A DNA stretch of 64,000 nt from a virus. The stretch's first letter is position 1. Each line of letters begins with the position of its first letter. Shown here one piece after another: positions 4,957 through 27,723 of the stretch. The stretch lies in IMG/VR virus record IMGVR_UViG_3300050494_000042; one strand, 5' to 3'. The notes under the pieces are model-generated. The model did no database searches and was not told the origin of the DNA. It saw only the letters and a list, made by a program, of their open reading frames with translations. A program made the translations under genes and the position numbers.

Positions 4957-5652
4957 TCAACTCGGAATTTGCTGAACAGGAACAGGCTCCTCATAAGGAG
5001 CATTGCGGAGTCTTTGAATCATCTGCTCATAGTTCTGCCAATCGTGGTCACCCCAATCTTCTGGATCACCGTGCATATCAACTGAATTGACGACTTCATT
5101 AGCCAGGTGATTCCCCAAATTCGACAGATGCACGTCTGCGTGGTAGTGGGGTTCGGTCCCGCTTGTATCTGCCGTCACAACACGCAGGTGATTACGTGGA
5201 ATTTTCTTTCGATACGCTTCTGGTTCCACCATGTCTTCAGGACGAAAGTTTCCCCTCATTCGATTGTTCATGATATGCAATTCCGGGAACACTCCCGGCT
5301 GATCGATATTCTGGTCAATGTGATCGAGAGCGTTCTCGATGTGCTCGGCAGTGAAGCGTCCTGGAACAATCCGCCCTTCATGCAAAATAACGTGTTGTTT
5401 GGGCTGTCGAAGTAGTGCAGCTTCTTGCCCACGACCCGACTCTTCTAGGGCGTCCGCCAATGGCCCTCGAACCCCGTGAAGTGGCTCGTTCTCACCCCAT
5501 CGGTGGGGGTTATTGTCTGGATGATTCAGTTGCCCCATCATATTGTTGATGGTGTCCTGATCCGCGTACTGGGTTTGCTGGATTGGCACGTCCCCCCGAT
5601 GGCCACGTTGACCGTGAAGGGGACGATGGAAAATGTCCTTGATGATGCCCAC
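4957..5652 (-). CDS. Hypothetical protein with a TIGR02996-like motif
   Basis: 231-aa ORF with LADALEESGRGQEAALLR; start uncertain. Confidence 0.55.
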   Translation of the reverse strand: MGIIKDIFHRPLHGQRGHRGDVPIQQTQYADQDTINNMMGQLNHPDNNPHRWGENEPLHGVRGPLADALEESGRGQEAALLRQPKQHVILHEGRIVPGRFTAEHIENALDHIDQNIDQPGVFPELHIMNNRMRGNFRPEDMVEPEAYRKKIPRNHLRVVTADTSGTEPHYHADVHLSNLGNHLANEVVNSVDMHGDPEDWGDHDWQNYEQMIQRLRNAPYEEPVPVQQIPS

Positions 5653-5682
5653 AAAAAACCCTCAACTGCGAGGAAGAGTCTT
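5652..5682 (-). terminator. Possible intrinsic terminator
   Basis: Minus strand CCTC-GCAGTT-GAGG followed by GTTTTTT. Confidence 0.4.
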
Positions 5683-5684
5683 GT

Positions 5685-5770
5685 TTTACTCCTACGAACC
5701 GGGAGTAATCGGTGTATGCCCGGAACAACACTCAGTTGCAACTACGAACCCGTTGCAGTGGGACTTTACC
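5685..5770 (-). repeat. Two-unit mini-array (near-consensus repeat plus variant-C repeat)
   Basis: GGTAAAGTCCCACTGCAACGGGTTCGTAGTTGCAAC (5735-5770, overlapping the upstream stop TAA), a short spacer, then ACACCGATTACTCCCGGTTCGTAGGAG. Confidence 0.8.
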
Positions 5771-6278
5771 CACGCAGATTCTGGTACGCACGCATGGTCG
5801 CTTCCTGAACCCGATCTACCAGTTCCCGCCAGGCGTCGTGATCGTTCTCGATATCGATCCCCGTGTCTCGTGCCAGACCATCCAAATATCCATTGTCATG
5901 CCCTTCATACGGCTCGAAATCCCCTACTGATGTTTGATTGGGATACCACACACCCTGCCGCATCCCACCCGCGATCCCGGCAGCTTCGTTTTCTGAGTTG
6001 GCAGATTGGTCGTCATGAACAATCCCACCACCAACGCGAACGTGATTCCCCAAATGAGTCATCACGGAGCCATTGAGGAATCCACCATGATCCCTCAACT
6101 GCATATTGGCGAGAGCACCATCAATCCGTTTCCATGCCGCCTCGTCGGAGCGTCCGTTCTCGTCTAGCCAATCCGCGTAGACCCAATGACGGGTGGAATC
6201 ATGTGGATTCTCGTCAATAGATCTCTGGAAATCACCATCGGAATGGGAGTAATTCGTGGGCTGCACGTTTGTAGTCAC
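5766..6278 (-). CDS. TIGR02996-domain protein
   Basis: FQRSIDENPHDSTRHWVYADWLDENGR; RBS GAGGAG before GTG 6278. Confidence 0.7.
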   Translation of the reverse strand: MTTNVQPTNYSHSDGDFQRSIDENPHDSTRHWVYADWLDENGRSDEAAWKRIDGALANMQLRDHGGFLNGSVMTHLGNHVRVGGGIVHDDQSANSENEAAGIAGGMRQGVWYPNQTSVGDFEPYEGHDNGYLDGLARDTGIDIENDHDAWRELVDRVQEATMRAYQNLRG

Positions 6279-6299: not shown

Positions 6300-6364
6300 T
6301 TTGCAGCTACAAACCCACTGCACTGGGATACCCAAACACTACTATACGATTCCCCATTTGGCAA
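6300..6364 (-). promoter_or_regulatory. Promoter immediately followed by a solitary repeat
   Basis: TTGCCA-N17-TAGTGT (6364-6336), then GGTATCCCAGTGCAGTGGGTTTGTAGCTGCAAA (within 6300-6335). Confidence 0.75.
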
Positions 6365-9300
6365 ATACCCGATGTGTCTCCGGGAACTTCTGCTTCAGGG
6401 TTTCCCTTCCGTTGGGGGTCGCATGGGCAAGTCGGAAGGCTTCCCCGAATCCTTCGGTTGGGTCAATGGCAGAATATTCGTTCAAGTTCCCACTCTTGAT
6501 TTCCTTGTGCCAGGCTTTCTTCCACTCATCCGATGTCGAGAGTTGGTGGTATCCCCCTTCCTTCCCCGCAGGATGGGACCAATCAAGTGCATGGGCGACT
6601 TCATGGGCCAGGACGCCCATCGGGTCATTTCCCCCCGCGTGGAGGTGAACGTGCCCCACATCCGGGTCGTGGAAGCCGTTGGGGGCTGTGAACTGACTGT
6701 TCGGGTCATCCGCAGCCTGTCCCGTGGCCTTCGTCCAGTGATTCCCCACATGCTCCTGTGACTGATGCGAAACGATGTGACTCAGCCTGCCTTGTCGGAG
6801 TCGTTCGATCACGTTCGGTGAAAAGCTCTTGAGCATGTCGAACGTCTGTCCTGCCAGGTGAGCAGCCTGATCCGGATCTTGGACGTGGTGAACCAGAGCA
6901 TTCGCGATGGAAGACGCGAAGGTATCGTGATTCGTCCAATCGACGGGATGGTGAACGCTGCCAGTGTCTTGTTGCTGCTGGGGCTGTGCGTCATCGTATC
7001 GGGACGCCTGGGTCGGAGGTTGCTGTGTTCCCAGATTCTTGACGTATGCTTGCCGGAACGCTTCCTCCATCGCGTGACGGGATGGCCATGCAAATGTCTG
7101 CGTCGAATCATCCCACCTGCCGTGATGGGGCTTCACCTTGCCGTCTGGGTCGGCCTCCCCGGTCCATGCCCACGTTTCACCGGGGATGTGATATCCAAAG
7201 TTCTCAACTCCTTTTGGGAATCTCCCGTCGTTCGTCCCATAAGCAAAACCCCCCGGTGAGGCGACAACCCACGGTCGATCCGCGAATTCCTGCTGTCGGT
7301 GTCGTGGGATTTTCGGTGGCTTCCAGGTGGAATACCATTCCCCGAGATTCCTTCGGAATTGAGCTTCTTCTGGCTGGCCGTTCTCTTCCAGGAAGTCCGC
7401 GTATGCCCCATGCGTGGTGTATTCGTGGGGATTCTCGTCAATCTTCCGCTCGAAGTCCTCGGCGGTAGGTTCCATGTACATAGCCGGTTTCGGATAACCC
7501 GAGAATCCCGGCTTGCGTGGTGGGGAGTGCTGGAACATCACAGAGCCAGGAATGTATTGCCCCTTCCGGTAGGGTTTGTCACGATACGTCATTGCGACCG
7601 GAGCTTGACGACGCTCGTACCTCGTGAACCCAATCGGCTGTTGGGGTTTCCTCCGATCCTGTCCGAACGACGGAATGAAAGTGTTGTTTCCTCCAGGGAA
7701 ACCCATGTATCGCTGATGACCCAACACGGGACCATTCACCGGGGGAGTCCCTGGTTGCTTCCCTGACGAAAAGAATTGCATTGGAGGGCTGATTCCCCCT
7801 CCTGGCGGAACAGCGTGTCCTGGCATCGGTCCGGGAATCCCCGCAGGGGAGGGAACCTGAGCCAGTTGCATTGGTGGGGCTGTGGGTTGCACGCCCATCA
7901 TCATGCTCGGATCGAGGGGACTTCCAGGAGGAACCGGTCCCTGTCCTGGCATCCCGTCCGGAGGCATCACGGGGGGAAGTTGTCCCATCTGCGGCAATTC
8001 CGGCCCCTGTGGACCCATTTTGGTCACGATGGTGGGTCCACCGGGGAACGCCTGAATGACGACCTCATCCCCCTCTTCTGGTCGGGAGAAATCACCCGCT
8101 TCCATCAGTTCATCGAGCTTGATGTACCCGCCCATGCTCAAGATCAACTTGCCCGACTGGACTTTCTCTTTCTTTTCCAAGTCGGGGAGGATGCTCTTGA
8201 ACCTGACCGGGAACTTTGCCCACGGGAAGTTGTACTTCTTCAGGGGAGCCAGAAGATCGTTAGTCAAAACTTCGTCAAGACGATTGGTGTCATATACTAA
8301 CAACTCATCCTTCGTTGCTCTCGAAAGCTCGGCACGTCCGGTGCCTCCAAGCCCATCCCCCTTATCCGCTCCGGAGGACATGCTCTGACCAACGAACAGC
8401 CTCTCAATGTGTCGGTCGAAGAAGTCCCTCACCAAGTCTTGAAGTGCTTTCAGTCCAGCACTGTTCATCTGGATCTGTTCGACTGCATTCCAGTTCTGGT
8501 CAGGACGACGCGGGCAAACAATTGCAGCTTTCCCAATGATTTTGTTGGCGTTGATTTCTGCCTGGAGCTTCCCGGCTGCGTCCCCTGCGGGGTAATTGAA
8601 AACGAGCAGGTCCATCTGCCCGATGGCCTGCATGTAAGTGATCATCCAGGTCAGGGCGTCGGTACGAAGGACATAGAGCCAGTACACCATTCCCCGCAAA
8701 CCCAATCCCTGAATACTACCCGCTAAGATTCCCTCGAAGAAGTCGGCTGGTTCCCGAACGTGCTGATGGATCACAAACCGTTCTCGCCACTGTTCCCGTT
8801 GAAGGACAAGGGCACATCCACCCCGGTCGGTGTAACGTAGATCCCCGTCCCCCCATGTTTCAGCCTGAATGCCTTTGTCCTTGTCGAAGGATTCCTTCCA
8901 GTCCCCACCCCACTTGGCTCCGTGGTTGGCGTACCAGGAGGTAGTCATCGAATCCATCAAGATCGCGGGGATGCCATCGAAGGTGTACTGGATGGAATCG
9001 CCGTGAACGGGGCTCCACGTCTGGTCTTTGCATCGCTGATTCTTGCCGTAGACCCAGAAGTTGTTGCAGTCAGGATCACGCTGGAAGAATCCCTGCACGG
9101 CGGATCGACCGAACCACACTCCTTGTAGAAGTGACCACTTCAACATCGAGAACTGTGGAGTAGATTCCACGATCTTGGTCATGGAATCCCGAACGTACAT
9201 CTGCTTGCTGTCGCGGTCATCATCGACCTCTATCCTCCAGTCGCGGTTCATTGTCGGTAAAAGTCTCTCCCACAGAAGCCCCCACAGGAACCCATCCCGT

Positions 9301-9542
9301 CGCATGGCCCTGGCATTTACGTAACTGTCACGCATACTCTCATCAAATTTGCTGCTGAACATTCTCTGAGCTGCGTTATATACCGCCTGCACAGCATGAG
9401 ATGGAGGAACTAACAAACGACCATTACCTATCATTGGCGAGCCGTCTGGAAGCGTGAAGTCCTCCAGCTTGAAGTTCTTCCGAGGCGGGACAGCCCTGAA
9501 AACCTCTAAGTCTTTTGCCAGGTCGTCAATGACGGTGGGCAT
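6342..9542 (-). CDS. Portal protein (DUF935/Mu gp29-like) fused to a Pro-rich linker, a TIGR02996 domain and a HEXXH zincin domain
   Basis: N-terminal ~500 aa are portal-like (LLQGVWFGRSAV, RLFVGQSMSS, NDLLAPLKKYNFP). Then FERKIDENPH...YADFLEENG and C-terminal LAHEVAHALD...EGFGEAF. Genomic context is a packaging module. Confidence 0.65.
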   Translation of the reverse strand: MPTVIDDLAKDLEVFRAVPPRKNFKLEDFTLPDGSPMIGNGRLLVPPSHAVQAVYNAAQRMFSSKFDESMRDSYVNARAMRRDGFLWGLLWERLLPTMNRDWRIEVDDDRDSKQMYVRDSMTKIVESTPQFSMLKWSLLQGVWFGRSAVQGFFQRDPDCNNFWVYGKNQRCKDQTWSPVHGDSIQYTFDGIPAILMDSMTTSWYANHGAKWGGDWKESFDKDKGIQAETWGDGDLRYTDRGGCALVLQREQWRERFVIHQHVREPADFFEGILAGSIQGLGLRGMVYWLYVLRTDALTWMITYMQAIGQMDLLVFNYPAGDAAGKLQAEINANKIIGKAAIVCPRRPDQNWNAVEQIQMNSAGLKALQDLVRDFFDRHIERLFVGQSMSSGADKGDGLGGTGRAELSRATKDELLVYDTNRLDEVLTNDLLAPLKKYNFPWAKFPVRFKSILPDLEKKEKVQSGKLILSMGGYIKLDELMEAGDFSRPEEGDEVVIQAFPGGPTIVTKMGPQGPELPQMGQLPPVMPPDGMPGQGPVPPGSPLDPSMMMGVQPTAPPMQLAQVPSPAGIPGPMPGHAVPPGGGISPPMQFFSSGKQPGTPPVNGPVLGHQRYMGFPGGNNTFIPSFGQDRRKPQQPIGFTRYERRQAPVAMTYRDKPYRKGQYIPGSVMFQHSPPRKPGFSGYPKPAMYMEPTAEDFERKIDENPHEYTTHGAYADFLEENGQPEEAQFRRNLGEWYSTWKPPKIPRHRQQEFADRPWVVASPGGFAYGTNDGRFPKGVENFGYHIPGETWAWTGEADPDGKVKPHHGRWDDSTQTFAWPSRHAMEEAFRQAYVKNLGTQQPPTQASRYDDAQPQQQQDTGSVHHPVDWTNHDTFASSIANALVHHVQDPDQAAHLAGQTFDMLKSFSPNVIERLRQGRLSHIVSHQSQEHVGNHWTKATGQAADDPNSQFTAPNGFHDPDVGHVHLHAGGNDPMGVLAHEVAHALDWSHPAGKEGGYHQLSTSDEWKKAWHKEIKSGNLNEYSAIDPTEGFGEAFRLAHATPNGRETLKQKFPETHRVFAKWGIV

Positions 9543-9561
9543 GATGAGTCACTAAATAAGA

Positions 9562-9600
9562 ACAAGCGGGTCGCGGGTTGTGGTCCCGACGCCCGCTTGC
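9562..9600 (-). terminator. Stem-loop after the repeat-flanked cassettes, before the portal gene
   Basis: AAGCGGG...CCCGCTT followed by GTTCTTATTT on the minus strand. Confidence 0.45.
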
Positions 9601-9660
9601 TACGAATTGTACCATCTCGATGTGAAGAAACTACAGAGAAGTGACGTGCTTTCGCTTCTA

Positions 9661-9743
9661 CTTCAATCGACCCGAAGCAGTGGGATTGTCAGATACTACA
9701 GCGACGAGTTGCAACTACTAACCCGCCACGGTGGATTGCTTGT
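9661..9743 (-). repeat. Mini-array: degenerate array-type repeat, 17-nt spacer, variant-B repeat
   Basis: CAAGCAATCCACCGTGGCGGGTTAGTAGTTGCAAC, TCGTCGCTGTAGTATCT, GACAATCCCACTGCTTCGGGTCGATTGAAG. Confidence 0.8.
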
Positions 9744-10017
9744 TCAGCTTCGGATCGACCTTCGTGGGTGTCGGTACGGGTTCCACCGTCGTCTTCGACT
9801 TGATGTAGTCCGCACACGCCTTCAATAACTGCGACGTCTGGCCGTAGAAGAACGCGGGGGAAGGATGTCCTGCCATCAGAGAACCACCCAGAGAGGCTTC
9901 TGCTTGCCGGTCGATGCCGGATGCCGTCTCGTCACACATTTTGATGAGCACAGCCGGATCAGTCAGATCCGGTGCTCCGGGGAAATCCAATCGAGGAAGC
10001 GGGGATGTCTCAGTCAC
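9718..10017 (-). CDS. Hypothetical protein bracketed by repeats
   Basis: RBS AGGAG before GTG 10017; the stop codon lies inside the 9708-9743 repeat. Confidence 0.6.
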   Translation of the reverse strand: MTETSPLPRLDFPGAPDLTDPAVLIKMCDETASGIDRQAEASLGGSLMAGHPSPAFFYGQTSQLLKACADYIKSKTTVEPVPTPTKVDPKLNKQSTVAG

Positions 10018-10052
10018 GAAAATGGTCTCCTGTTGTTGAAATTTACTGTCTG

Positions 10053-10140
10053 CTTCAATTGACCCGAAGCAGTGGGATTGTCCGCCAGACACGATCCTTC
10101 ATCGCCTTCACCCCTACAAACCGGGAGCAATCGGTTGTTC
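10053..10140 (-). repeat. Mini-array: variant-C repeat, ~28-nt spacer, variant-B repeat
   Basis: GAACAACCGATTGCTCCCGGTTTGTAGGGG ... GACAATCCCACTGCTTCGGGTCAATTGAAG (29/30 identical to the 9661 copy). Confidence 0.8.
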
Positions 10141-10395
10141 TTGACTCTTCGCCAACGTCTCCAGTGTATTCCCACCCGACAGCAAAGCACAGACGATCTT
10201 TTCCACGAAGAGTGGGGAAAGTTCATACTGGCCATGCTGATTCAGGGCGTAATACACATTCTTCCCTGACGGTTGGAGAGGCTGTTCCCCTTCCACCTTC
10301 GGAAGGGTGACGCCCTTGAAGTTCTGGAGTTGGGCAAGAATCTTGGCGAGTCGTTGGGACTCTTGCCCCACAGCTAACATATCAATCGGATTCAT
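10114..10395 (-). CDS. Hypothetical protein directly after the CRISPR array
   Basis: RBS AAAGGAG lies within the 28 nt after the last repeat; the stop TAG lies inside the variant-C repeat. Confidence 0.65.
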   Translation of the reverse strand: MNPIDMLAVGQESQRLAKILAQLQNFKGVTLPKVEGEQPLQPSGKNVYYALNQHGQYELSPLFVEKIVCALLSGGNTLETLAKSQEQPIAPGL

Positions 10396-10423
10396 TCATT
10401 CTCCTTTGGTGGATCGACTGCCG

Positions 10424-10898
10424 GTTGCAACTACTAACCCGTTGCACTGGGATTGTTACGTCTCTTCTGTGTGAGGCACCAACCCAGCGGCTTGTGGTTG
10501 CAACTACAAACCGGTTGCACTCGGTATGTCACGCCGACGCCGAGCAGTTGGCGGCACTCGAACGCAAGTTGCAACTACAAACCGGTTGCACTGGGATTGT
10601 TACCTAGCTTCGACTTCCGTGCCGCATTCATTGCTTCGCCCCTCGATTGCAACTACTAACCCGTTGCACTGGGATTGTTACGATGCTTGTGCTGCTTGTG
10701 GTTGTCCACTCGAAGATGTTGCAACTACTAACCCGTTGCACTGGGATTGTTACCGAAATAAAGGTTCGGGAACTCTGCCATAGGCGCCGTTGCAACTACT
10801 AACCCGTTGCACTGGGATTGTTACAGCCGTCGCCAGGTCCGGCGGCACGAGGAGGCCGGTGTGTTGCAACTACTAACCCGTTGCACTGGGATTGTTAC
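10424..10898 (-). CRISPR. CRISPR array, 7 repeats and 6 spacers
   Basis: 36-nt repeat GTAACAATCCCAGTGCAACGGGTTAGTAGTTGCAAC at 10424, 10497, 10568, 10646, 10718, 10789 and 10863. Spacers are 35-42 nt; the leader-distal repeats at 10497 and 10568 are variants. Confidence 0.97.
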
Positions 10899-10902
10899 TG
10901 CC

Positions 10903-10931
10903 ACTCTACAACACGCCCGCTTCCCAAGCAA
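10903..10931 (-). promoter_or_regulatory. Array leader promoter
   Basis: TTGCTT-N17-TAGAGT, with the -10 box 4 nt before the first repeat. Confidence 0.7.
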
Positions 10932-11020
10932 ATTATTCCTGTTCCGCGAGCGGTTCCCAATTTGACCCATGATCCTTCACATTGAACCCCTATCAAGCGG
11001 GGGGTCATCGCCTGGAAATC

Positions 11021-12925
11021 CTAGACGCGAGCGGGTACTTTCGCCCCAGAAGCCCCCAAAGCCCTGTTTAACAAGTTCGTGGCGGCATTCACTGCCCGAT
11101 CCCTCTTTTCACCACCACAGGACTCGCAGCGAATCCAGCGGCCCGACTTCGGGTGGTCACACGATTCCCCACACTGACAACACGTCGTCACGATGTTCCT
11201 GGCGGACTCAGTAACTTCGTTCATGTATCTTGTTATCTCGTCCCGGAGTTGGGCACAGGAAGACAGTGCCCGATATCGCTTGTTGACGATATCGTTCCCG
11301 TTCTCGACTTCAGGATTCTCAGCCAACTTGTTCCAGTCAATTTCCGCGATCACCACGTCCTTGTACTGATAGCTCAGGTCAATCGCCACTTTTCGGAAGA
11401 AATCCTTCCGCCAGTTCTTGATCTTGTCCCGCTTGTGTGCCCTCCAGTCGCACAGGTGTTTGCTCTGCAAACGCCCCCCGGTGTACTGATTCCTTCCCGT
11501 GGTTGGGTTGAGTTGGATTCTCCCCCACATTCTTTGGAAGATCTCTTCGTCTCCGGGAATCCGATGATCCTTCCACCACCAAATGAGCCACATGAACCTG
11601 TCGGCACTTCGCCACTGAATCAGAGTCTGGGCACGCTCGGTCCACTCTTCGGGAAGGGGATTCGGGTAGTTCACGAACCAGTCGACCAGTTCAGCCCTTT
11701 CAGCTTCAAACAAGGTATCCCGAATGGACTGGAGGGTGTCAAGATAGGACCACCCCTCCACCAATTCTTTGGGAATACGGACGGTTCCGGTCACACCATC
11801 ATCACCAACCCACTCGGTAACGCGGATTTCCCCATCAATCAGACGCCAACCCAACGCCACCGCGACAGTCCCTTCCTGTGCCCGATCCTGTCCGGCCGGG
11901 TGATACGTCCACGCATCCCGTGCGATGTCGAACTGAACATCCCACCGGTAATGAGTTCCAATCTTCCTGCGGGACAGGTGAACCCACTTCACTTCACCGT
12001 CTTCGGGGAGAGGACGCGACATGACAGCCGGAATCGACGCCATCACCGGCTTTCCCTTTTCGTCCGACGATACACGAAAGTGGATGACGACGTACTTCGG
12101 ATGGGGAGCCGTCAGCGGTGGTTGATACGTCCTTTCGATCCAGCAATTCGTGTTGGGGGTGAAGACATCACAGGTCCGAAGAGATGACCCCCCCACGTGA
12201 GCGAACGTTGGCTTCTTGCTGCGTGGATGGATCTTGGGATTGCCTTTGGAGTCCAAAACTGGCTCCTTCGGGGATGTCTTGTCGGGCTTCCGTTGGAACT
12301 GAACCGAGATAACTTCCTCCCCCCGCCACGACTTGAACTTCGGGGGTGGGCCGGTTCTCTTTACACGTCCCACCACTTGCAGGGAAGTAGCCCAGTACAA
12401 CCCACCTTCCACCGCCGCGTTGCGGGCATCTGCCTTTCGTTGTTCAAACGACTTATCGTTGTCCTTCAGGTCGGCTTTCACCTTCGGGTCGGCAAACGCG
12501 GCGTCCCGCTGATCAGAATAGAACTCCCATGCCTGGGACACCACACGCTTCTGAGCGTTGATTTGCTCCACTAGTTCGGGGTCTGACATCAACTGCCGGT
12601 TCTGACTGTTCGACTGGCTGAGTTCATCCCGAAGCTCCTGGAGGCGTTCCTGCTGCTCCTGGGCTGCGTTGTGGAGGGTCGTCAGAGCCGGAAAGTGTCT
12701 GACCAGGATTGGGTCGATGGCTTCCCTGCGGGCACGCTCGATTTCTACCAACTTGTTCTGGAACTGGTGAGCGAGCTTCATCTGGGTAACTGCCAGGTCG
12801 TGTCCATCGAACCTCTGACGGAGGGCTTTCGTGCCGTCAGGATTGATTTCACGCGGACCGGAAAGGAACCCCCGGCAACCGTAGTTGTACTTGCGAGTCG
12901 GTTTGCTCTTGTTACCGAATGCCAT
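11021..12925 (-). CDS. cas12m: Type V-M (V-U1) Cas12m-like effector, RuvC predicted inactive (634 aa)
   Basis: Motifs recalled from Cas12m: QMKLAHQFQNKLVEIE, GLYWAT, ISVQFQR, TVAVALGWR, QWRSADRF, zinc finger CCQC..CESC, DRAVNAATNLL. Adjacent to the array. The start at 12925 is supported by a GGAG RBS and an upstream promoter. Confidence 0.85.
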   Translation of the reverse strand: MAFGNKSKPTRKYNYGCRGFLSGPREINPDGTKALRQRFDGHDLAVTQMKLAHQFQNKLVEIERARREAIDPILVRHFPALTTLHNAAQEQQERLQELRDELSQSNSQNRQLMSDPELVEQINAQKRVVSQAWEFYSDQRDAAFADPKVKADLKDNDKSFEQRKADARNAAVEGGLYWATSLQVVGRVKRTGPPPKFKSWRGEEVISVQFQRKPDKTSPKEPVLDSKGNPKIHPRSKKPTFAHVGGSSLRTCDVFTPNTNCWIERTYQPPLTAPHPKYVVIHFRVSSDEKGKPVMASIPAVMSRPLPEDGEVKWVHLSRRKIGTHYRWDVQFDIARDAWTYHPAGQDRAQEGTVAVALGWRLIDGEIRVTEWVGDDGVTGTVRIPKELVEGWSYLDTLQSIRDTLFEAERAELVDWFVNYPNPLPEEWTERAQTLIQWRSADRFMWLIWWWKDHRIPGDEEIFQRMWGRIQLNPTTGRNQYTGGRLQSKHLCDWRAHKRDKIKNWRKDFFRKVAIDLSYQYKDVVIAEIDWNKLAENPEVENGNDIVNKRYRALSSCAQLRDEITRYMNEVTESARNIVTTCCQCGESCDHPKSGRWIRCESCGGEKRDRAVNAATNLLNRALGASGAKVPARV

Positions 12926-12953
12926 GCTTGGGAACTCCAGAAGGTGGGAAATC

Positions 12954-13018
12954 TTCGCAGCTACCAACCCGCTGCGATGGGAACAGGCAACCCTAGCATG
13001 AGATTCGTTAAAAGGCAA
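12954..13018 (-). promoter_or_regulatory. cas12m promoter followed by a degenerate repeat in the 5' UTR
   Basis: TTGCCT-N17-TAGGGT (extended TG), then GTTCCCATCGCAGCGGGTTGGTAGCTGCGAA. Confidence 0.75.
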
Positions 13019-13019
13019 A

Positions 13020-13628
13020 TTATCGTCCCGGTGGTCTGATTCTCCTGTTCGTGAATGTCCTCCTGCCGTCCATTCCCCCTTCGTTCTGATATCCCATCGA
13101 ATCACCGTCTTCCTCGAACGGAACTCCGGTAATACTCCCGTCGTCGTGGACAGTGATTACCATCACTCTGCCACCCTGGGGGCTTTGTAGAGTCATTCCC
13201 ACGCGAACCGGGAAACCGACATGGAACCGGACGGTGGTGATCTCTGTCTGTCCTTGCTGGACTTCAGGAACGACCGGATTGAACATCCGGACCACTTCCA
13301 TGCACGCCCAGTTCATGTCGAACAGAATTGGTTGGAGAAGATTCCCCAACTGGAACCGGAAGTCATTCTCAGGGTCATTACTCCGAGGACCAGCAAACAT
13401 ATCTCTCGTGGCGAATCCCACAACAAACGCTTGCAAGTTATGAGCAGTCTGTACCATTCCCGCTTCGAGGAGGGCATCATAGAGAGGAATGGCCGCTGTG
13501 GGGTCAGGAGGTGTTAATTCCTCTCCGGACTCTGGCAGATAGCCAACGGACCCCACCAGACGCCACGCCAGATTACCGATGTTGTCGGACCTGCGGACGG
13601 GTCCAACTTGTTGTTCTTGTTCTGCCAT
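13020..13628 (-). CDS. Hypothetical protein
   Basis: 202-aa ORF in the operon direction. Confidence 0.55.
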   Translation of the reverse strand: MAEQEQQVGPVRRSDNIGNLAWRLVGSVGYLPESGEELTPPDPTAAIPLYDALLEAGMVQTAHNLQAFVVGFATRDMFAGPRSNDPENDFRFQLGNLLQPILFDMNWACMEVVRMFNPVVPEVQQGQTEITTVRFHVGFPVRVGMTLQSPQGGRVMVITVHDDGSITGVPFEEDGDSMGYQNEGGMDGRRTFTNRRIRPPGR

Positions 13629-14651: not shown

Positions 14652-16660
14652 TTTCGTGCTCCTGTCGCAAGAACGGTGTCTATCAACGAAGGTGCCCGAT
14701 TGAGTTCCTGCTCCGACGCTAACTTCTCGTCTATTTCCTTGAGTGGAATCACGGACATTCGGCAGTAGGTATCGTCCACTCCAAGAGAAATGAACAGATT
14801 GCTTCCGTGAACCACAGCCCCACCAGGCCAGCAAACGAACCGCTTCACCACGTTGTCATTGTCTTTGCTGTCTGGCCAAAGCAAAGGAGTTGGTGTCTGT
14901 CTCCAGACATTGAACGGTGGTTCGGGATTGAATGCCACACAGCCAGCGGAATACACACTGCCTTGCAGACGCTTCCGGCACCCGTGTACAATTGACCACA
15001 TCTCGTAACGCTGTTCCTTCTCACTCCACACTTTGATCGGGGACGCTCCACCTCGAATGACCCCACCTGCCCAGGGCAACTTGTTCGGAGTACGCCACGT
15101 CTGGCGGTCGGACATCACGATCATTTCCGGCTTGTGTGCGTAAACCCAGTGAATTTTCCCGTTGTGCTCCCACGCGACCCAGTTCTTCTCATACTTGTTA
15201 GAATTTGGTGACTCGAATACGAAGGTGTCCTCGATGCTTTTAAGGTCATCTGCGAACCGGACGTATCCGACCTGCACCAGCTTCGGGGGATACCCGTCCG
15301 GCAAACTGAATGAAGCGTGGAGTCTGCCTTCGTACAGAAACAGTCGGGGGTCTTCGAGTCGGGTGGCCTGAGCGTGTTTCGATGCCAGCGAGGATACAGC
15401 CGTCACAGACCATTCCCCAAGCCAGTCTTCCTGGGTGTTCTGCAACACCCAAATTCCAGTACGGCTATGACCCCAACTGTCCCGCGTGGCGAGGATCAAT
15501 TGCCCCCGATACTCTGCCACCGAACAATTAAAGTGTCCGTCCGGAACGGGAAGTCGAGTTCTTTCTACGTCAGGTGTCACGAACTGTCGGTATTCACACG
15601 TCTCGCAGGATCGCACAGGAACGTCGGCTTCCTTGATTTTGGCCCCCACCTTCGTGAAGCAGTGATCTCCGTAACGACCACACTTCGCCAGAGGTATCGT
15701 CCTTCCCCCTTCCAGGACACCGATTTCGTTGCTCCACTCCGACCGGTACATACAGGGAAGTGGGTCCGAATATTGGAGTATCACCTGATCCATCTCCGGG
15801 GTGATGTGAAGAGGATCTTGAATCTCCCGTCCCGTCAGGAGTGCCTGGACGTCCCCGTGGTGCCTGCTCTCCGTGACACCGAGGGGTAACGATGGTTCGC
15901 TGCTACTAACCCGCTGCGATGGGTCTGGGGCAGTTCGTGTGACATTTCCATCGGAATTAACCCCCGATAGTGGGTTGTCGCTAACGTCGATACAGGATGG
16001 TGCCCATTCCGGTTTCCCGGTGCCTGCGTAGTCGAATGTTCGCTGCGTTACAATGGACGGGAGGACCGCACACCAGTTCAAAAGTCCCTTCTTCAGGACA
16101 CGTTCCCAGAGTTGCTGATCCAGGTTCCGGTGTGCCGCCCGCATGTGCTCCAGAAGAACCGGGAGAGCACGTCTGCGGAGCATAATGGCGTGTGTGCCGA
16201 AAGGTTCGTTTAGTCTGCACAGACGCGAATCAGGCAATCCAATGCGTTCCGTCACCTTGTTCCAGCAATTAGGCTGCACTTCTGCGGAGCCGAGAAACAC
16301 CAGATCCCACTCCGGGAAGTCGGAATAGAGTTGGCGTTGGAGCAGTTCCAGTTCAGTGTGGTAGTTCTCAGGGAGGGAGACGTCGTCCTCGAAGATGATG
16401 TATTCGTGATTGTCGCGATGAACCCACTCCTGACCCGACAACCAGATGTGCTGCCAGAGATTCCACGTCGAAAGGTTGAGAGAGACGTGACCAGACGGCA
16501 GGTGCTTTCCCGGCTCGTATTCGAGTGTGGTGGAAAGTCCCCAAGTACGTCCGTGGCTGGCCTTCCAGTACGTCGCGTCAATCCCCCGCTCTGCAAGGTG
16601 TTCCTTGCAGGCTTGGGTTCGTTCGGGAAGCTCTTCGCAGTGAATCACATAATACTTCAC
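14648..16660 (-). CDS. Glycosyltransferase family 25-like domain fused to a GH130-like/beta-propeller glycosidase domain
   Basis: N-terminus YVIHC..ERT, GHVSL, YIIFEDD, GTHA; C-terminus LEDPRL, EKNWV, RGGASP, YSAG, WPGG. Confidence 0.6.
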   Translation of the reverse strand: MKYYVIHCEELPERTQACKEHLAERGIDATYWKASHGRTWGLSTTLEYEPGKHLPSGHVSLNLSTWNLWQHIWLSGQEWVHRDNHEYIIFEDDVSLPENYHTELELLQRQLYSDFPEWDLVFLGSAEVQPNCWNKVTERIGLPDSRLCRLNEPFGTHAIMLRRRALPVLLEHMRAAHRNLDQQLWERVLKKGLLNWCAVLPSIVTQRTFDYAGTGKPEWAPSCIDVSDNPLSGVNSDGNVTRTAPDPSQRVSSSEPSLPLGVTESRHHGDVQALLTGREIQDPLHITPEMDQVILQYSDPLPCMYRSEWSNEIGVLEGGRTIPLAKCGRYGDHCFTKVGAKIKEADVPVRSCETCEYRQFVTPDVERTRLPVPDGHFNCSVAEYRGQLILATRDSWGHSRTGIWVLQNTQEDWLGEWSVTAVSSLASKHAQATRLEDPRLFLYEGRLHASFSLPDGYPPKLVQVGYVRFADDLKSIEDTFVFESPNSNKYEKNWVAWEHNGKIHWVYAHKPEMIVMSDRQTWRTPNKLPWAGGVIRGGASPIKVWSEKEQRYEMWSIVHGCRKRLQGSVYSAGCVAFNPEPPFNVWRQTPTPLLWPDSKDNDNVVKRFVCWPGGAVVHGSNLFISLGVDDTYCRMSVIPLKEIDEKLASEQELNRAPSLIDTVLATGARK
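15896..15931 (-). repeat. Repeat variant embedded in frame in the interdomain linker
   Basis: GACCCATCGCAGCGGGTTAGTAGCAGCGAA, nearly identical to the copy in the cas12m leader. Confidence 0.7.
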
Positions 16661-20046: not shown

Positions 20047-20106
20047 AAACACCCCGTTGCATTCGGATTACTGCGAAACTCTAGCACGCAATCCGTGGAA
20101 AGGCAA
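20047..20106 (-). promoter_or_regulatory. Promoter followed by a degenerate repeat hairpin
   Basis: TTGCCT-N17-TAGAGT, then GTAATCCGAATGCAACGGGG. Confidence 0.65.
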
Positions 20107-20118
20107 ATCGGGACGGGA

Positions 20119-21819
20119 TTATCTTCTGGCGTGAGTCCTTCCGTTCAAGTACGGATAGGGGGAATCGGTGAAGTCGTCACTATGTCCACCGACAACTGAA
20201 GGCAAATCGTGGCTGATTTCGTGGTAGCACACCAACATCGCATCGGCATCGTCGGGGCTTCTCCCCAAGCGTTCCTTGATTTTCTTCTTGATCTCCACCT
20301 GATACGCTTTGTTGGGCAGAATCTCGTAACTCGGTGTCAGGAGTTGGAGTTTCAATTTCTTCAGGACGTCCTGAGGCAGATCCGACAGGTCCATTTCGCT
20401 CTCCATCGCCTTCTTCTTGGCTTCAAACCAAATCTGTGCCCTTTTGTTGTCGTACACGTAAGCTCCAGTCGAGTCCATGATGAGGGAATTCTCCGCGACG
20501 TTCAATCCAATCCAGTCCCCAAAGCCATTGCAGTGAGACATCACCCCATATCCAGGTCCATCAAGCTCCACAATGACCCTCACTTGTGACGCCTGAAGAC
20601 GTGGACGGGTGGGAATTGCGGCCCATGAGTTGTACTTCTCAGCCCACAATTCGGACAAGTCCTTGAGACGTTGTGCCGTCTTCTCCGGACCCCACCCGTT
20701 GTGGGATTCATGGTGGAGGCTCTTCCTACCTGATCTAACGTGCATACTAGTATCATCATCTCCGAACAAAGCAACGTCACAGCCAATTGTGATTCCCCAC
20801 TTCTGCCACCAGCAGTGCTCGTGAGTGTACTTCGGTGTGATGGCTCGTAACCACGCCAGTTCGCTCCAAACGGTGTCCACGCCTTCCGTGGGGCGGATAC
20901 CCTGCACACGAGCTTTGAACATGGGTCCGGGTCTGTGAAACTTGCCGGATTGAGGTGGCCATTCGATGTCGGTGGGAAGTCGATCTTCTTCACTGACCGG
21001 ATCAGACCATTCCTTCACCCAGCCGTCGACCATCGCGAGCGTGACGGCGTTGGGAATAATCGGCTCTTGTCCTGCCAGTTGAGCCTTGATATTCGGGTGA
21101 TCGAGTGCTGAAATATTGTGAACTTTCCACTTGGGGTTGCCGTCCGGACCTTCTGCCAAGTCCTCAAGGTAGCTCTGGGAAGCTGTCGTGATGGGATTCC
21201 CAATCGCGAACCATCCGTGATCGCTGTCGGGCTGGTACATCGTGTTCGTCGTGATCCAATAAACCGAGTCGATCCCCTCGGACTCGTCAAATATGAACAA
21301 CATGCAAGAACGGTGCTTACCCTGAGACGCTTCTCCGCTGCCCTGTGTGCGTCCCTTGATCCAGTGATCGTCGTAATCGAACAAGTCGGCTGCTTTGGGT
21401 GCCAACTTGCCCACATAAGGAATCTTGGCTTTGTTGAGGAGCATCCGGACTTCTGACCAGAGAACCGTTTCGACGTGATCCTTCGTAGGAGCGGTAATGA
21501 CAACAACACCAGGATTTCGTGTGTAGTACCACCATACGGCCAACACCGCAGCCAAAAAACTCTTACCTAACGAGTGACCAGAATTGACTTTGATTCGTCC
21601 TGGGAACTTCCGAATGATTGTTTCTTGATCTTCCGTAAGAGTAACGTCGAGAACTTCCTTCGCGAACCTGACTGGGTCATGAACATACTTCACCATCTCG
21701 TCCTTTTGTGAGACGGATGGGTCGGGGCGGCAAGCGTGTTCCAGTTGCTTTGCAGTGTACTTGCTCTTCAGTCCTGCCGCCAGAGCCTTCAGCTTGTCCA
21801 GGTCGATGGGAAGGGCCAC
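20119..21819 (-). CDS. terL: Terminase large subunit
   Basis: Walker A GHSLGKS, Walker B FIFDESEG, nuclease IGCDVALFGDD and RSPDDADA. Confidence 0.9.
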   Translation of the reverse strand: MALPIDLDKLKALAAGLKSKYTAKQLEHACRPDPSVSQKDEMVKYVHDPVRFAKEVLDVTLTEDQETIIRKFPGRIKVNSGHSLGKSFLAAVLAVWWYYTRNPGVVVITAPTKDHVETVLWSEVRMLLNKAKIPYVGKLAPKAADLFDYDDHWIKGRTQGSGEASQGKHRSCMLFIFDESEGIDSVYWITTNTMYQPDSDHGWFAIGNPITTASQSYLEDLAEGPDGNPKWKVHNISALDHPNIKAQLAGQEPIIPNAVTLAMVDGWVKEWSDPVSEEDRLPTDIEWPPQSGKFHRPGPMFKARVQGIRPTEGVDTVWSELAWLRAITPKYTHEHCWWQKWGITIGCDVALFGDDDTSMHVRSGRKSLHHESHNGWGPEKTAQRLKDLSELWAEKYNSWAAIPTRPRLQASQVRVIVELDGPGYGVMSHCNGFGDWIGLNVAENSLIMDSTGAYVYDNKRAQIWFEAKKKAMESEMDLSDLPQDVLKKLKLQLLTPSYEILPNKAYQVEIKKKIKERLGRSPDDADAMLVCYHEISHDLPSVVGGHSDDFTDSPYPYLNGRTHARR

Positions 21820-24800: not shown

Positions 24801-27723
24801 GTTCCTCAAGGAAATCCGCGAATGGTCCCAGTCCCGATGCATCGTTCTGGGACACGATTCCATGCATCATCGCGTCGTGAGTATCAGGATCGCCGGATTG
24901 AACGTAGTGCGTTCCCATGTGCTCGTCGTAGGACTCCGTGACGTCCGTATCCCCGAAGTCGTAATTCGTCCTTCCGTAACGCGAGAAGTTCACATCCTCA
25001 CTGACTTCCCGCTGTTCCAACCCAGAAGCCTGCTGGGGAACGGGTGGATGTGTCTGGGACAGTTGATGTGCTGTCTGGTGAGCCTGCTGTGCCGCTTTCT
25101 CAGGGAATTCTCCCACATTCCCATGAACACCTGCTTCGTGGGATATCCCCCCTGTGTCGGGATGGAACTGCCAGACGTCGTGAGCTTCCTCCCCGTCATG
25201 ACCCTCGAAATCGTCACGGGACGTGAAGTAGACGCCCCCAGGACCACTATGGGGTTCCCCGTGGGAGGTGTGACGCTCACCCTGATTGTTGACCCACCCG
25301 TAGTGCTCGTTGGGGAACATCTCGTTGAAGTGGGACGTCTCCCCGTTGGCTTTACGGATGTCGTCCCAGGTGTAGTGCGGACCTGCCTTTACTTCCCCCG
25401 TCTGCGGGTGTGTCGAAATCCAGGCGTTTCCTTGATGGGTTCTCAGGAAGTTCAGTGTGTCCGGGTGGACGGTATGAGGAGCGTAGTCCTCCAACCAATC
25501 AGCATAGATCTGCCTATTTACTGCGTCATGAGGAGCTTCCTGGGCACGTGCCTGAAACGCCTGGTGGGAGTAGTCAGTACGGGAATACGGGGTTTTGTTC
25601 CTCCAATAGTCCCTATCGGGGTGTTCCCCACCTGAAAACCCTCCTGCGGAATCCCCGGTATCGTCGTAATTCGACTGCTCATCTTCGTCCTCGTTGTACC
25701 ACCTGTCGTGGTTTGGGGAATCCTGTCCATCCCCACCCGCTCCAGAGCCACTGAATCCGTACATGGAGCCGTCTGCGTCGTCGTACCGGGCGTTCTGTTC
25801 GGGTGGTGTCTGGGACTCCAGGTATTCGGCTGAATTCAACAGACGAGCACGCAGGGTCGGGGACACCTTCGGATGATCTGCCCATTCTCGAAGGGATGGG
25901 GCATCCATGACAGCAGTGTGGGACGGAAAGGACAGACTTCCGCCCGTTCTTCGGTGAACCAGGGCACTTCCGGGAACGTCAGTGGACCGGATAGTCCATG
26001 TCTGGTCCCCATCACGAACAACTGTGCTTGGTTCCCCTGCCAATTGTGCCTTGTGGGAAATGCCCTGCTTGTTGTGAACAAGCGGAGAACCTGATTCGAC
26101 CAAGTTCCGGTAAAAGGGAGCGTGGGGTTCCCCGGCTTCATCCAGTGCATCTGCCAAGACCCCCCCGGCTGTGGTGTCCTGAACGTAGTTGTGGTTGTAC
26201 TCGTCAGCCCACTGTCTTTGACTGTTCTCAACCCCCTGACGAATGGTTTCCCCTAAATCGAGGGTGTACATCGTCCCTGTGTGGCCACCAGATTGCGTAG
26301 GAACGTCACTGTGGGGCGAAAGGGGGTCCGGATGGCCAAAGTGTGCGTAGAGGTGCGAAACTTCGTCTGGAGTCATTGCAGCACTGTAAGACGGCTCATC
26401 ATTCTCCGTAGGGGTCCAATTAACGGCATGAACGACAGGTCGGGCTTCTGCGTCTGATGCCCACTTCTGACTCGCGGGATACCAGCCACCCGTCAACTGC
26501 AACGTACCGCCATCCCCCGTTGGAACGACACGTCGAGATGTGCCGTCGTGTGGATGCCACCGATGATCAACCGGACCACCCGCAAGCTGTTCCGCATGGC
26601 GATGCAAATTCCCCAACCATCCATTGCCCACCCCATGATGACTCGGATTGTCTGCGGAACTCCGATACGACACATCCCTGTCCACAATCGTGGCTCGTGG
26701 ATCGTCGTGGTCGGCTAACTTACCCACCAAGACATGATCCACGTAGGCATTCGGGTCCATGCTCCCGGCTCCGGGTGCGGAGTTCAGAATTTCATGGATT
26801 TCATTGATAGGAGCCGCGTAGTCGGTTGGGTCTCCATCGGCATACCGTGAAAACTGTCGTCCTGCCTGAGCTTGCTTGGGGAACCCTGCCGGGGATACCC
26901 AGGGAGAACCGAACTGTTCCAGGCTTTGAGTTGATCCGGGGGCGATACTTCCGGGGATTGTGGGTGGGGGAAGTCTCATGTCGGTGAAGGACGGGTAGCC
27001 GAAGGAATCGTCGTCGTAACGGCTTAATTGCTGGGGTTCTTCATGATCCTCTGGCAAGTTTGGGTCGGCGTGGTAAACATGCTCGATGGTCTTCTGTCGA
27101 ACGTGCTCAGGAAGATCGGCTAGCATCTCGTTCAGATGGCGGTGGGACAGCACAGGGACACGGTAATCAATTCCGATTTCCTGTGGGGCAGAATAGGAGT
27201 TATGATAGATACGTAGATATGAGCCAGTTCGAGGTTCCTTCACAGGAACCTCCCTTTTTACAGCCTGAATACTCGCAAATCCCGGAACATCGTGTCGGTG
27301 AACAGGATCGATATAGACATTCGCTTCCCCATTACTGTCCCTTATGGAATCGACGTCCTCAGTATGATACAGCCTTTGGAACCCATTCGGACGATACTTG
27401 GCTCCTTCCGCCATCAACAAACCCCCTGGCTGTCCGTACTGCTGAAGATGGTCCGCCAACATCGCCAGGGGAGTACCTTCATGTTCATCCGCTGTCAGAA
27501 CTGCATTGTGTAGCTCATCGTGAACCTGCCGGAATTCATCATCGTAATTCGTCGGTTCATTGGAATACTGAGCGTAACAGTCGTAGCTTTGGAACTCCGG
27601 ATTCGGATACACGTTGCAACTACTAACCCGTTGCACTGGGATAGGCATAAACTCCTGCAACCCCTTCAGGAAAATGTGAAGGGCGTCCTGAACCTGCTGG
27701 AGGGCTTCGTATTCCGGATTCAC
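21823..27723 (-). CDS. Giant (1966 aa) modular protein with about 8-9 TIGR02996-like modules
   Basis: Repeated YADWLE/LADYLE motifs, an internal duplicated module, a DFWVSRNGHGAGFW domain and xRY linkers; lies between terS and terL. Confidence 0.75.
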   Translation of the reverse strand: MNPEYEALQQVQDALHIFLKGLQEFMPIPVQRVSSCNVYPNPEFQSYDCYAQYSNEPTNYDDEFRQVHDELHNAVLTADEHEGTPLAMLADHLQQYGQPGGLLMAEGAKYRPNGFQRLYHTEDVDSIRDSNGEANVYIDPVHRHDVPGFASIQAVKREVPVKEPRTGSYLRIYHNSYSAPQEIGIDYRVPVLSHRHLNEMLADLPEHVRQKTIEHVYHADPNLPEDHEEPQQLSRYDDDSFGYPSFTDMRLPPPTIPGSIAPGSTQSLEQFGSPWVSPAGFPKQAQAGRQFSRYADGDPTDYAAPINEIHEILNSAPGAGSMDPNAYVDHVLVGKLADHDDPRATIVDRDVSYRSSADNPSHHGVGNGWLGNLHRHAEQLAGGPVDHRWHPHDGTSRRVVPTGDGGTLQLTGGWYPASQKWASDAEARPVVHAVNWTPTENDEPSYSAAMTPDEVSHLYAHFGHPDPLSPHSDVPTQSGGHTGTMYTLDLGETIRQGVENSQRQWADEYNHNYVQDTTAGGVLADALDEAGEPHAPFYRNLVESGSPLVHNKQGISHKAQLAGEPSTVVRDGDQTWTIRSTDVPGSALVHRRTGGSLSFPSHTAVMDAPSLREWADHPKVSPTLRARLLNSAEYLESQTPPEQNARYDDADGSMYGFSGSGAGGDGQDSPNHDRWYNEDEDEQSNYDDTGDSAGGFSGGEHPDRDYWRNKTPYSRTDYSHQAFQARAQEAPHDAVNRQIYADWLEDYAPHTVHPDTLNFLRTHQGNAWISTHPQTGEVKAGPHYTWDDIRKANGETSHFNEMFPNEHYGWVNNQGERHTSHGEPHSGPGGVYFTSRDDFEGHDGEEAHDVWQFHPDTGGISHEAGVHGNVGEFPEKAAQQAHQTAHQLSQTHPPVPQQASGLEQREVSEDVNFSRYGRTNYDFGDTDVTESYDEHMGTHYVQSGDPDTHDAMMHGIVSQNDASGLGPFADFLEEQGMPGAHLARQAYWHSRDPEQMRPPFYPGLWFPYDYSIQLPSVVEDGTPGPHGPTPHQQIGLTPHISKKYYDTGARSGALTVTHAPHGNPLRFGNGGYLQYHVPVDSKEHLAHLTQDLPEPMRQAIHAYMEPHLPSQPDFQPQMMSRYSRTDYVSEQELPAMLSSISPRAWRGWQHEQSPHFDMTPRLVAADYLDDLHADTGNQDYARQAAILRDTRKHAYLDPDGGIQDAHALSQQLHRQYRPNIQGYMIRPDHLEPGFQQYMDTALWSSTDPDAGEPLDENHTYHNIHPATMAAMLADFRHFRATNQEKLADTSSGSSDHAHDFWVSRNGHGAGFWEKPEVYGDHGYDLQDAAEKHGEHDLYVGSDGMIHGSYEVQPTQDEPTQAARYSRMDYMTSEEDFHRMLDETPHDHQTRMILADYLEDQNDPRAAGYRALGMHRRYATHWNPKAEGYDGQPYPESWDWGHDENSHYPNVSNALPRDWLDAMESTNPSYANAQDREYWTHHESRRAADDAAALGFARLHPERQAELLGQSQQTQAAQYSDTAWSSGGGTLHEDHSDFRGKDKPFEGQRYYPEAYQESVNYDYSPPQQEWQERDDIADWVSQSRTHLNNYPNLSPVMEQDGDQRYSMYARTDYSHEAFHHAIQEHPNDTVARGVYADWLEEKDPNSVSPDTLHFLRNHPGDAWVAHHPQTGEVHAGAIPTFDDIRKANGEEYGWTAAYGGHPSKHYGFFPSFGVEGSGEHIPHGPVHSGIGGHYFVTEGEGFPENPNPHRYDVWKFHPQDGGISLRMPSRWMGHSQEEAHRNANELSQTPPVAPAPAPRLSEDTGEEHLSLYADDDSSQEQWTDPHAAFQASIYPELGGNPLDPMGHYVYSDFLREQGHHDEADFRQAMGDWHSQNHGMYDPQQYLSLKNADAQQFPHRIYSGSLPSGVDPEHLPQYRQSHRDGDFYTAPDHVPRFIGMQYSWPTYKGMEAAFHQSFMANRQQGQTG
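27613..27648 (-). repeat. Near-consensus repeat within or at the start of the giant ORF
   Basis: ATGCCTATCCCAGTGCAACGGGTTAGTAGTTGCAAC: the 3' 30 nt are identical to the array repeat. It encodes MPIPVQRVSSCN in frame. Confidence 0.9.

Follow-up and report, generated by a model that had tools for sequence, protein, structure and literature searches.

The 64,000-nucleotide (nt) stretch of viral DNA analyzed here (IMG/VR record IMGVR_UViG_3300050494_000042, hereafter the window) contains, on its minus strand, an open reading frame (ORF) whose product is a Cas12m-family (type V-M) effector. Judged from its alignments, this phage protein has lost the carboxylates of both RuvC-I and RuvC-III, an arrangement previously undescribed for Cas12m. 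The cas12m gene is followed by a CRISPR array, and further copies of the array repeat are dispersed along the phage DNA, most of them in gene leaders; the adjacent array and the leader copies both bear on how this Cas12m works. By analogy with characterized members of the family, we consider it probable that the protein is loaded with CRISPR RNAs (crRNAs) from the array and binds matching double-stranded DNA (dsDNA) without cutting it, thereby silencing a function of a competitor or of the host.

Identification of the Cas12m Effector

The gene and the features of its product that are discussed below are as follows:

11021-12925, minus strand: cas12m gene of 634 amino acids (aa) plus stop codon, with an A-E-A RuvC site; identified by profile, phmmer and Foldseek
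11855-11857, minus strand: Ala357 codon, RuvC-I (Asp, His or Asn in other Cas12m proteins); from alignment
11342-11344, minus strand: Glu528 codon, RuvC-II (E, D, N, Q, K or I in the clade); from alignment
11117-11182, minus strand: CxxC-N14-CxxC zinc finger of the TNB domain, intact; from the sequence and the homologue alignment
11093-11095, minus strand: Ala611 codon, RuvC-III (the D of D-x-N-A-A in relatives); from alignment

The start of the 634-aa protein was placed at the Met of MAFGNK. Since homologues share this Met as their start, an alternative GTG start at 13105 was unsupported.

The PADLOC Cas12u1 profile (V-U1 being the former name of V-M) matched the protein with an expectation value (E) of 2.2e-70 over profile positions 16-531 of 533, and this was the sole PADLOC Cas match in the window. 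A phmmer comparison with the PDB retrieved the solved Cas12m 23vw_A (E 1.3e-43) and Cas12m2 (E 8e-5), the sequence identity to solved Cas12m structures being only ~18%. The NCBIfam TnpB models scored 22.4 bits (cut-off 425) and 18.1 bits (cut-off 100), and Pfam OrfB_IS605 gave an E of 0.28.

An AlphaFold2 model built with 34 homologues was confident (predicted local distance difference test (pLDDT) 87.7; predicted template modelling score (pTM) 0.79), and ranks 1-4 of its Foldseek matches in the PDB were all Cas12m structures. The top two, Cas12m2 (8hhl) and GoCas12m (8pm4), gave template modelling (TM) scores of 0.72 when normalized by query and of 0.75-0.76 by target, compared with 0.29-0.39 by query (0.29-0.35 for TnpB) and 0.40-0.57 by target for the Cas12f and TnpB structures. 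The predicted model keeps the Cas12m architecture, with WED, a long helical REC, the RuvC fold and the zinc-finger TNB; four long helices lie at residues 42-173. All four Cys of the C4 zinc finger (C582/C585/C600/C603) are present and nearly invariant across the family. Profile, sequence and fold thus all favored Cas12m over IS605 TnpB. This agrees with an earlier note on the window, made from its sequence alone, which had assigned the protein to Cas12m, described the finger as intact and called for the structure prediction reported here.

Alanine at the RuvC-I and RuvC-III Positions

Residue 357, at the RuvC-I catalytic position, is Ala (GCG) within GTVAVALGWR; residue 528, at the RuvC-II position, is Glu within VVIAEIDW; and residue 611, at the RuvC-III catalytic position, is Ala (GCA) within DRAVNAA. 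In the phmmer alignment to 23vw_A, A357 stands opposite the Asp of GTAAIDLGWR and A611 opposite the second Asp of DQDYNAA, while E528 aligns with an E of IVLEEF. In relatives of the H-D-D type (P0032 and P0033), His was found opposite A357 and Asp opposite A611. We take the catalytic RuvC-III Asp to be the D of D-x-N-[AG]-A, as in the Cas12a and Cas12f motifs; therefore, A611 marks the catalytic position, and the retained D609 does not.

Cas12m clades with HEK/HQK, HDD, DED/NED and DED/DND/NED triads have been described (Wu et al., Omura et al.), and PmCas12m has NDD. The A357-E528-A611 site matches none of the described triads (HEK/HQK, HDD, DED/NED, DND or NDD), which does not exclude V-M membership because triads vary across the family. 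Both claims of the earlier note on this point, namely that Ala replaces the two RuvC Asp and that the site is even more degenerate than that of the characterized Mycolicibacterium Cas12m, were borne out by the alignments; in degeneracy, the site exceeds every triad described so far. In MmCas12m2, one Mg2+ held at the HDD site helps to clamp the non-target strand. Whereas positions I and III are occupied in the described triads by metal-binding or polar residues, the phage protein has Ala at both, so that even a single HDD-type Mg2+ site is probably gone. From such an A-E-A site, a role in binding only is naturally inferred.

A Clade of Phage-Encoded Relatives Shares the Replacements

In each of the 30 close homologues (35-68% identity), the RuvC-I residue is A or S and the RuvC-III residue is A, L or M, while the RuvC-II position drifts between E, D, N, Q and K. 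An exhaustive profile search yielded 2,802 cluster representatives at E<=1e-30, the best 175 of which were used for a tree. Among these 175, 36 representatives combine A, S or V at RuvC-I with a residue other than Asp at RuvC-III, and their RuvC-II residues are E, D, N, Q, K or I. The 36 form a single FastTree clade (support 0.88), nested among proteins with D, N or H at position I and D at position III; P0166 is the nearest sister of this A..A clade that is not dead. The placement of the protein by profile search and phylogeny, which had been proposed as a check of its identity, put it, within the tree of the best 175, in the A..A clade among Cas12m relatives.

Since the A..A proteins form one nested clade, loss of the RuvC Asp happened once; and since the same replacements recur in the 30 close homologues and the 36 representatives, they are not due to chance. 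Down to ~35% identity, the 36 representatives are still full-length and retain the C4 finger as well as many invariant W, R and G residues. The catalytic loss has thus been maintained in a protein that otherwise remained constrained.

All examined contexts of the A..A clade are phage-like. GroES-like and portal genes are carried by L001, a syntenic contig of 103.7 kb; the contigs L002 and L004 are likewise of phage-like character, and L005 is an IMG/VR contig. More distant Cas12m family members are also located on viral contigs of 50-185 kb, and a D-type relative (P0031) lies between phage genes. Overall, family members were found on at least six IMG/VR viral contigs and on several phage-like contigs.

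The Adjacent Array and Its Pseudoknot Handle

One CRISPR array adjoins the gene, separated from it by a gap of 122 nt:

10424-10898, minus strand: CRISPR array of 7 repeats (36 nt) and 6 spacers (35-42 nt), immediately downstream of cas12m and in the same orientation

Arrays of their own, with 8-18 repeats and unrelated spacers, are carried by L001, L002, L004 and L005. Analysis of 15 distinct repeats from four phages revealed a pseudoknot, with stem I formed by columns 9-11/20-22 and stem II by columns 14-19/29-34. Of the pseudoknot cells, 99.3% were paired, compensatory changes were found in six of the nine pairs, and no shuffle or slide came close. Counted from the 3' end, the stems fall at -28..-26/-17..-15 and -23..-20/-6..-3, exactly where the PmCas12m crRNA structure has them. 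As in V-M systems, an adjacent array with a Cas12m pseudoknot handle is thus present at the locus.

Repeats R4, R5 and R6 of the window array, and especially the repeats of L001, the closest relative, differ from one another but keep the fold. Because the repeats have drifted with compensatory changes, an old, fixed array is more likely than active acquisition, which suggests that the window array consists of old fixed units rather than being a site of ongoing spacer acquisition. The repeats in the arrays of L002, L004 and L005 are perfectly homogeneous; therefore, spacer gain must occur somewhere in the clade.

Neither the window nor the relatives' loci contained another match to the six spacers or to the sequences that follow solitary repeats (described below); only chance-level matches of 12-17 nt were obtained there. 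The relatives' spacers, searched against all loci compared, gave no cross-targets except for a self-match in L001. Spacer 1 (10825-10862) has a GC content of 74%, compared with 54% for the phage, and one of its frames reads TGLLVPP, which we take to be a common glycosyltransferase motif. Its first 22 nt match a glycosyltransferase-like ORF (L016:2506-2527) on a metagenome contig of 73% GC. These features suggest that spacer 1 derives from a bacterial sugar-transferase gene, and no target was assigned; L016 itself was rejected as the target, the full match being only 22/38.

The self-match in L001 involves its first spacer, which pairs in antisense orientation with the 3' end of the cas12m of L001 itself, with 30/33 positions matched and mismatches at positions 11, 15 and 28 (coordinates 7824-7856 and 7907-7941). 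A TTC flank in the PAM (protospacer adjacent motif) position was the only hint of a PAM. The match may represent a self-targeting autoregulatory guide or, alternatively, a long RNA hairpin enclosing the first repeat.

In L005, two arrays flank cas12m. The upstream one (5453-5975) has 8 mutually divergent repeats with an uneven spacing of 56-75 nt, the last of which ends 31 nt before the ATG, and the downstream one (8060-9140) is regular, with 15 repeats.

Repeat Handles Dispersed through the Phage DNA

A covariance model was built from the repeats, and the window was searched with it with filters off. Besides the array and two variant repeats, 16 further copies were detected at E<0.01, 15 of them in sense on the minus strand and the remaining one on the plus strand. 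The copies span 2811-55078; solitary ones include those at 27613, 5735, 19804, 30601, 17543, 6300, 55047, 50243, 18700, 49708, 54499, 15896 and 30552. Most are placed 13-34 nt upstream of a start codon (ORFs >=75 aa), and the plus-strand copy, at 2811, is correspondingly 25 nt ahead of a plus-strand ORF; those at 15896 and 27613 are inside long ORFs. The stems of the solitary copies remain paired through compensatory changes, which argues for selection on the RNA fold.

A copy also precedes cas12m itself. Comparable leader repeats are found ahead of cas12m in L002 and L005, and a degenerate form in L001. Moreover, a promoter-like TTGCY-N18-TAGNGT motif, searched with a custom pattern, occurs 7 times in the window, where 0.12 would be expected, and each time on the minus strand. 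Of the seven motifs, five end 4-7 nt ahead of a repeat, those of the array and cas12m included (the unit at 20047 was read by eye). Owing to this position directly ahead of the repeats, transcripts would begin at the handle. A generic scan of 9500-13200 for sigma-70 promoters and terminators returned no more than expected. The leader copy, the motifs and the elements downstream of the array are as follows:

12954-12982, minus strand: repeat-like pseudoknot 28 nt ahead of the ATG, in the 5' leader of cas12m; covariance model, E 0.001
12990-13018, minus strand: promoter-like TTGCCT-N17-TAGGGT upstream of cas12m; custom pattern
10903-10931, minus strand: promoter-like TTGCTT-N17-TAGAGT, 4 nt before the first array repeat; custom pattern
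2717-2745, 6336-6364, 20078-20106, 30640-30668 and 55492-55520, minus strand: further TTGCY-N18-TAGNGT motifs; custom pattern
10114-10395, minus strand: 93-aa ORF starting 28 nt after the last array repeat, with its stop inside a degenerate repeat (10107-10142)
10049-10084, minus strand: variant repeat with two compensated stem II pairs (UGCUUC/GAAGCA); covariance model, E 1.5e-7
9718-10017, minus strand: 99-aa ORF starting 31 nt after the variant repeat, with its stop inside a degenerate repeat (9708-9742)
9657-9692, minus strand: second copy of the variant repeat; covariance model, E 4.3e-7
9554-9601, minus strand: strong hairpin (-26.3 kcal/mol, z -4.5) followed by UUCUUAUUU, a terminator-like end of the cas12m-array-cassette unit

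The array is thus followed by small-ORF cassettes between repeats (9657-10395), in which each stop codon is the TAG of the repeat loop. Neither the 93-aa nor the 99-aa ORF matched a Pfam family. The same arrangement was observed at L001:8087-8650, with a homologue of the 93-aa ORF in the same place, and the cas12m of L001 itself ends inside the first repeat. The hairpin at 9554-9601, with its U-run, lies just before the portal gene and was not flagged by the simple terminator scan. In the 39-kb record of L005, only one solitary copy was found outside the two arrays; therefore, dispersal along the whole genome is a feature of the lineage and not of the A..A clade as a whole.

Phage Context and Adaptation Genes

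The window is phage DNA. It encodes a Mu-like portal (6342-9542) and a large terminase (20119-21819), together with a family A DNA polymerase (PolA), a UvsX/RecA-like recombinase, a gp32-like SSB, ThyX, UDG, a small terminase and a DNA methylase, and nearly every gene is on the minus strand. The presence of portal, terminase, PolA and recombinase genes beside cas12m confirmed the earlier statement that it is phage-borne. An identical Cas12m protein was found on 10 contigs, the largest of 103,868 bp, and contigs with this DNA come from rhizosphere and soil metagenomes. Contigs from two samples, one of JGI and one of ENA, carry the cas12m-array region without a single base difference.

Among the 92 ORFs of the window, which represents ~64 kb of a 103.9-kb contig, none matched the Pfam models of Cas1, Cas2 or Cas4 at E<=1e-5, in line with the earlier reading that these genes are missing from the window. 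Neither Tn7-type nor transposase families were present among the 18 Pfam families matched in the window. Cas1 was likewise not found in four IMG/VR records with Cas12m relatives, three of which are 90-100% complete. Further, no arrays of this repeat family were detected with a degenerate repeat pattern in one genome each of 185,579 species; the only two matches were isolated and were judged to be due to chance. V-U loci are typically without adaptation genes, in bacteria as well (Bigelyte et al.), and their absence is ordinary for V-M.

In the portal ORF (6342-9542, minus strand; 1066 aa), a long Pro-rich linker is combined with a C-terminal, HExxH-containing part that matches the Pfam ATLF metallopeptidase-like family (E 1.5e-7), an unusual fusion for a portal. 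One ORF matched a PI3/PI4-kinase domain in Pfam (E 2e-11), and others matched dCTP deaminase-like, RNase H/RVT_3 and phage PDDEXK nuclease families.

Comparison with Known Systems

The closest counterparts are the V-M Cas12m proteins MmCas12m2 (8hhl/8hio), GoCas12m (8pm4), PmCas12m and 23vw. The phage protein shares with them a length of ~600 aa, the bilobed fold with a long helical REC insertion, the C4 finger, a single-crRNA pseudoknot handle in the same register, an adjacent array and the lack of adaptation genes, and DNA binding without cleavage would be expected of it by analogy. It differs from them in its RuvC triad and in that its gene is phage-encoded. Phage carriage has already been reported for MvCas12m of myxophage MV-1, presented as the first phage Cas12m in a September 2026 preprint (bioRxiv 10.64898/2026.09.14.751636). 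MvCas12m likewise adjoins an array, lacks cas1, cas2 and cas4, and has no protospacer found. In contrast to the A-E-A site described here, it keeps D305/E463/D555; its authors presume it to be a nuclease and report no trans-activating crRNA (tracrRNA) (bioRxiv 10.64898/2026.09.14.751636). The A-x-A branch is a further step along a known trend, a 'gradual inactivation' within V-M having been described previously (Altae-Tran et al. 2023).

Loss of RuvC catalytic residues with retention of RNA-guided binding, the latter presumed for the phage protein, also links it to Cas12k, TldR and RpoE-associated TnpB. Unlike these, the locus has no Tn7-like genes, sigma factor or omega-RNA, and it combines a true CRISPR array with a Cas12m fold. 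A V-K system (Cas12k, CRISPR-associated transposon) was rejected, as no Tn7-type Pfam family was present in the window and the best profile was Cas12u1, not Cas12k.

As regards the dispersed repeats, the position of standalone repeats near promoters and cas genes suggests regulation through a Cas protein (bioRxiv 10.1101/2024.10.29.618823). The crlRNA/CreR mini-arrays, tracr-L and solitary repeat units of phages resemble the present case in having repeat copies outside the main array near promoters and cas genes. The present case differs from crlRNA-type RNAs in that the phage encodes the Cas protein itself, the copies are many and head ordinary phage genes in sense at their 5' end, and the leader of the gene itself, not a partial match to a promoter elsewhere, would be the guide.

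Proposed Mechanism and Alternatives

We propose that the phage Cas12m assembles with crRNAs from the adjacent array. Pre-crRNA processing by Cas12m survives RuvC mutation (Bigelyte et al.); being RuvC-independent, it does not need the residues lost here and would proceed without them. The complex would then bind matching dsDNA and leave it uncut, as DED, HDD and NDD Cas12m proteins all bind dsDNA and do not cut it (Bigelyte et al.), and targets would be silenced by blocking transcription or replication, as in other Cas12m systems. With lower confidence, we suggest that, on top of this array role, transcripts of the phage itself are also bound by Cas12m at their handle, so that cas12m would be autoregulated and other units would be controlled or processed. 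This could take place at the RNA level, with Cas12m occluding the ribosome-binding site within ~30 nt of the handle, or at the DNA level, with the leader used as a guide against its own template. The 3' ends of the repeats are AAC, GAA and AAA and not TTN, which weakly favors action at the RNA level.

Three points weigh against silencing of DNA as the principal role. Searches of the window, of 50,697 INPHARED phages, of 72,556 PLSDB plasmids and of IMG/VR gave no protospacer for any of the six spacers, and the 22-nt PAM-proximal seeds of all six had no exact match in IMG/VR. Further, the A-E-A site probably cannot hold the Mg2+ clamp of MmCas12m2, so that DNA binding may be weaker or may work differently. 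Finally, with so many handles in mRNA leaders, the main substrate could be RNA rather than foreign DNA.

A wider view, which we put forward only tentatively, is that in this phage lineage the dead Cas12m acts as a genome-wide regulator of the phage's own expression. The transcripts of one promoter class, including the cas12m mRNA and the array, would start with the handle, and Cas12m would load on them, possibly with the leader as guide, and so set the timing of these genes, process them or switch them off. Among about two dozen substrates, the CRISPR array would then be just one.

A related explanation, which we regard as unlikely, holds that Cas12m is mainly a regulator or processing factor of phage RNAs, its own included, through their 5' handles, and that the array is secondary or vestigial. 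The protein would control the translation, stability or cleavage of mRNAs, or leaders would guide the shut-off of the same promoters. It would account well for the 16 extra handles at E<0.01, 15 of them in gene sense on the minus strand and most 13-34 nt ahead of start codons, for the motif shared 4-7 nt before five handles, at which transcripts would start, and for the recurrence of the cas12m leader handle in L001, L002 and L005. The two small-ORF cassettes that lie between repeats and end inside them in the window and in L001, the compensatory changes that keep the solitary handles paired, and an array that is identical in two samples while its repeats drift also fit it. However, L002, L004 and L005 have ordinary homogeneous arrays of 8-18 repeats, the single solitary copy of L005 and the restriction of handle dispersal to the lineage do not extend it to the A..A clade as a whole, and no Cas12m has been shown to regulate mRNAs.

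That the locus is an adaptive immune module gaining spacers through host Cas1-Cas2 in trans, as the earlier note had in effect concluded by stating that it must borrow the host's adaptation machinery, is improbable. The absence of cas1, cas2 and cas4 from the window is compatible with it, and the relatives' wholly different spacers and, in part, perfectly homogeneous repeats indicate that spacers are gained somehow. However, being without adaptation genes is the V-U/V-M norm, and the four IMG/VR records of relatives are without Cas1; arrays of the repeat family are absent from one genome each of 185,579 species, apart from the two isolated chance matches; and the array is identical across two samples, while the repeats of the window and of L001 have mutually diverged. 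The claim of such borrowing was therefore not upheld.

Decay of cas12m into a functionless nuclease relic is very improbable: the protein has lost two of three catalytic residues and varies at the position of the third, but the ORF is full-length in 36 representatives down to ~35% identity, with invariant residues, an intact finger, a pLDDT of 87.7 and co-conserved arrays. Least credible of all is an IS200/IS605 TnpB or a TldR-type domesticated TnpB with an omega-RNA in place of a CRISPR effector, as the weak NCBIfam TnpB matches, over the C-terminal RuvC/zinc-finger part, are far below cut-off, Cas12m gives the best match by profile, by sequence and by fold, cas12m is followed by a CRISPR array and not by an omega-RNA or transposon end, and no transposase was among the Pfam matches of the window.

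Significance

In base editing, epigenome editing and genetic circuits, value is already placed on Cas12m, a compact DNA binder that naturally lacks nuclease activity. A deep, conserved phage branch with Ala at both RuvC Asp positions indicates that the family can work without the metal site, and it gives a test case from nature for the contribution of the residual HDD/NDD site, for instance, to clamping of the non-target strand. The A..A clade also provides new orthologues, possibly with new PAMs, and phage-encoded Cas12m is common in soil metagenomes rather than a single case. The coupling of the protein to dispersed handles is more remarkable than its dead RuvC site: a dead effector tied to a handle in phage mRNA leaders would, if confirmed, be a new use of a CRISPR protein.

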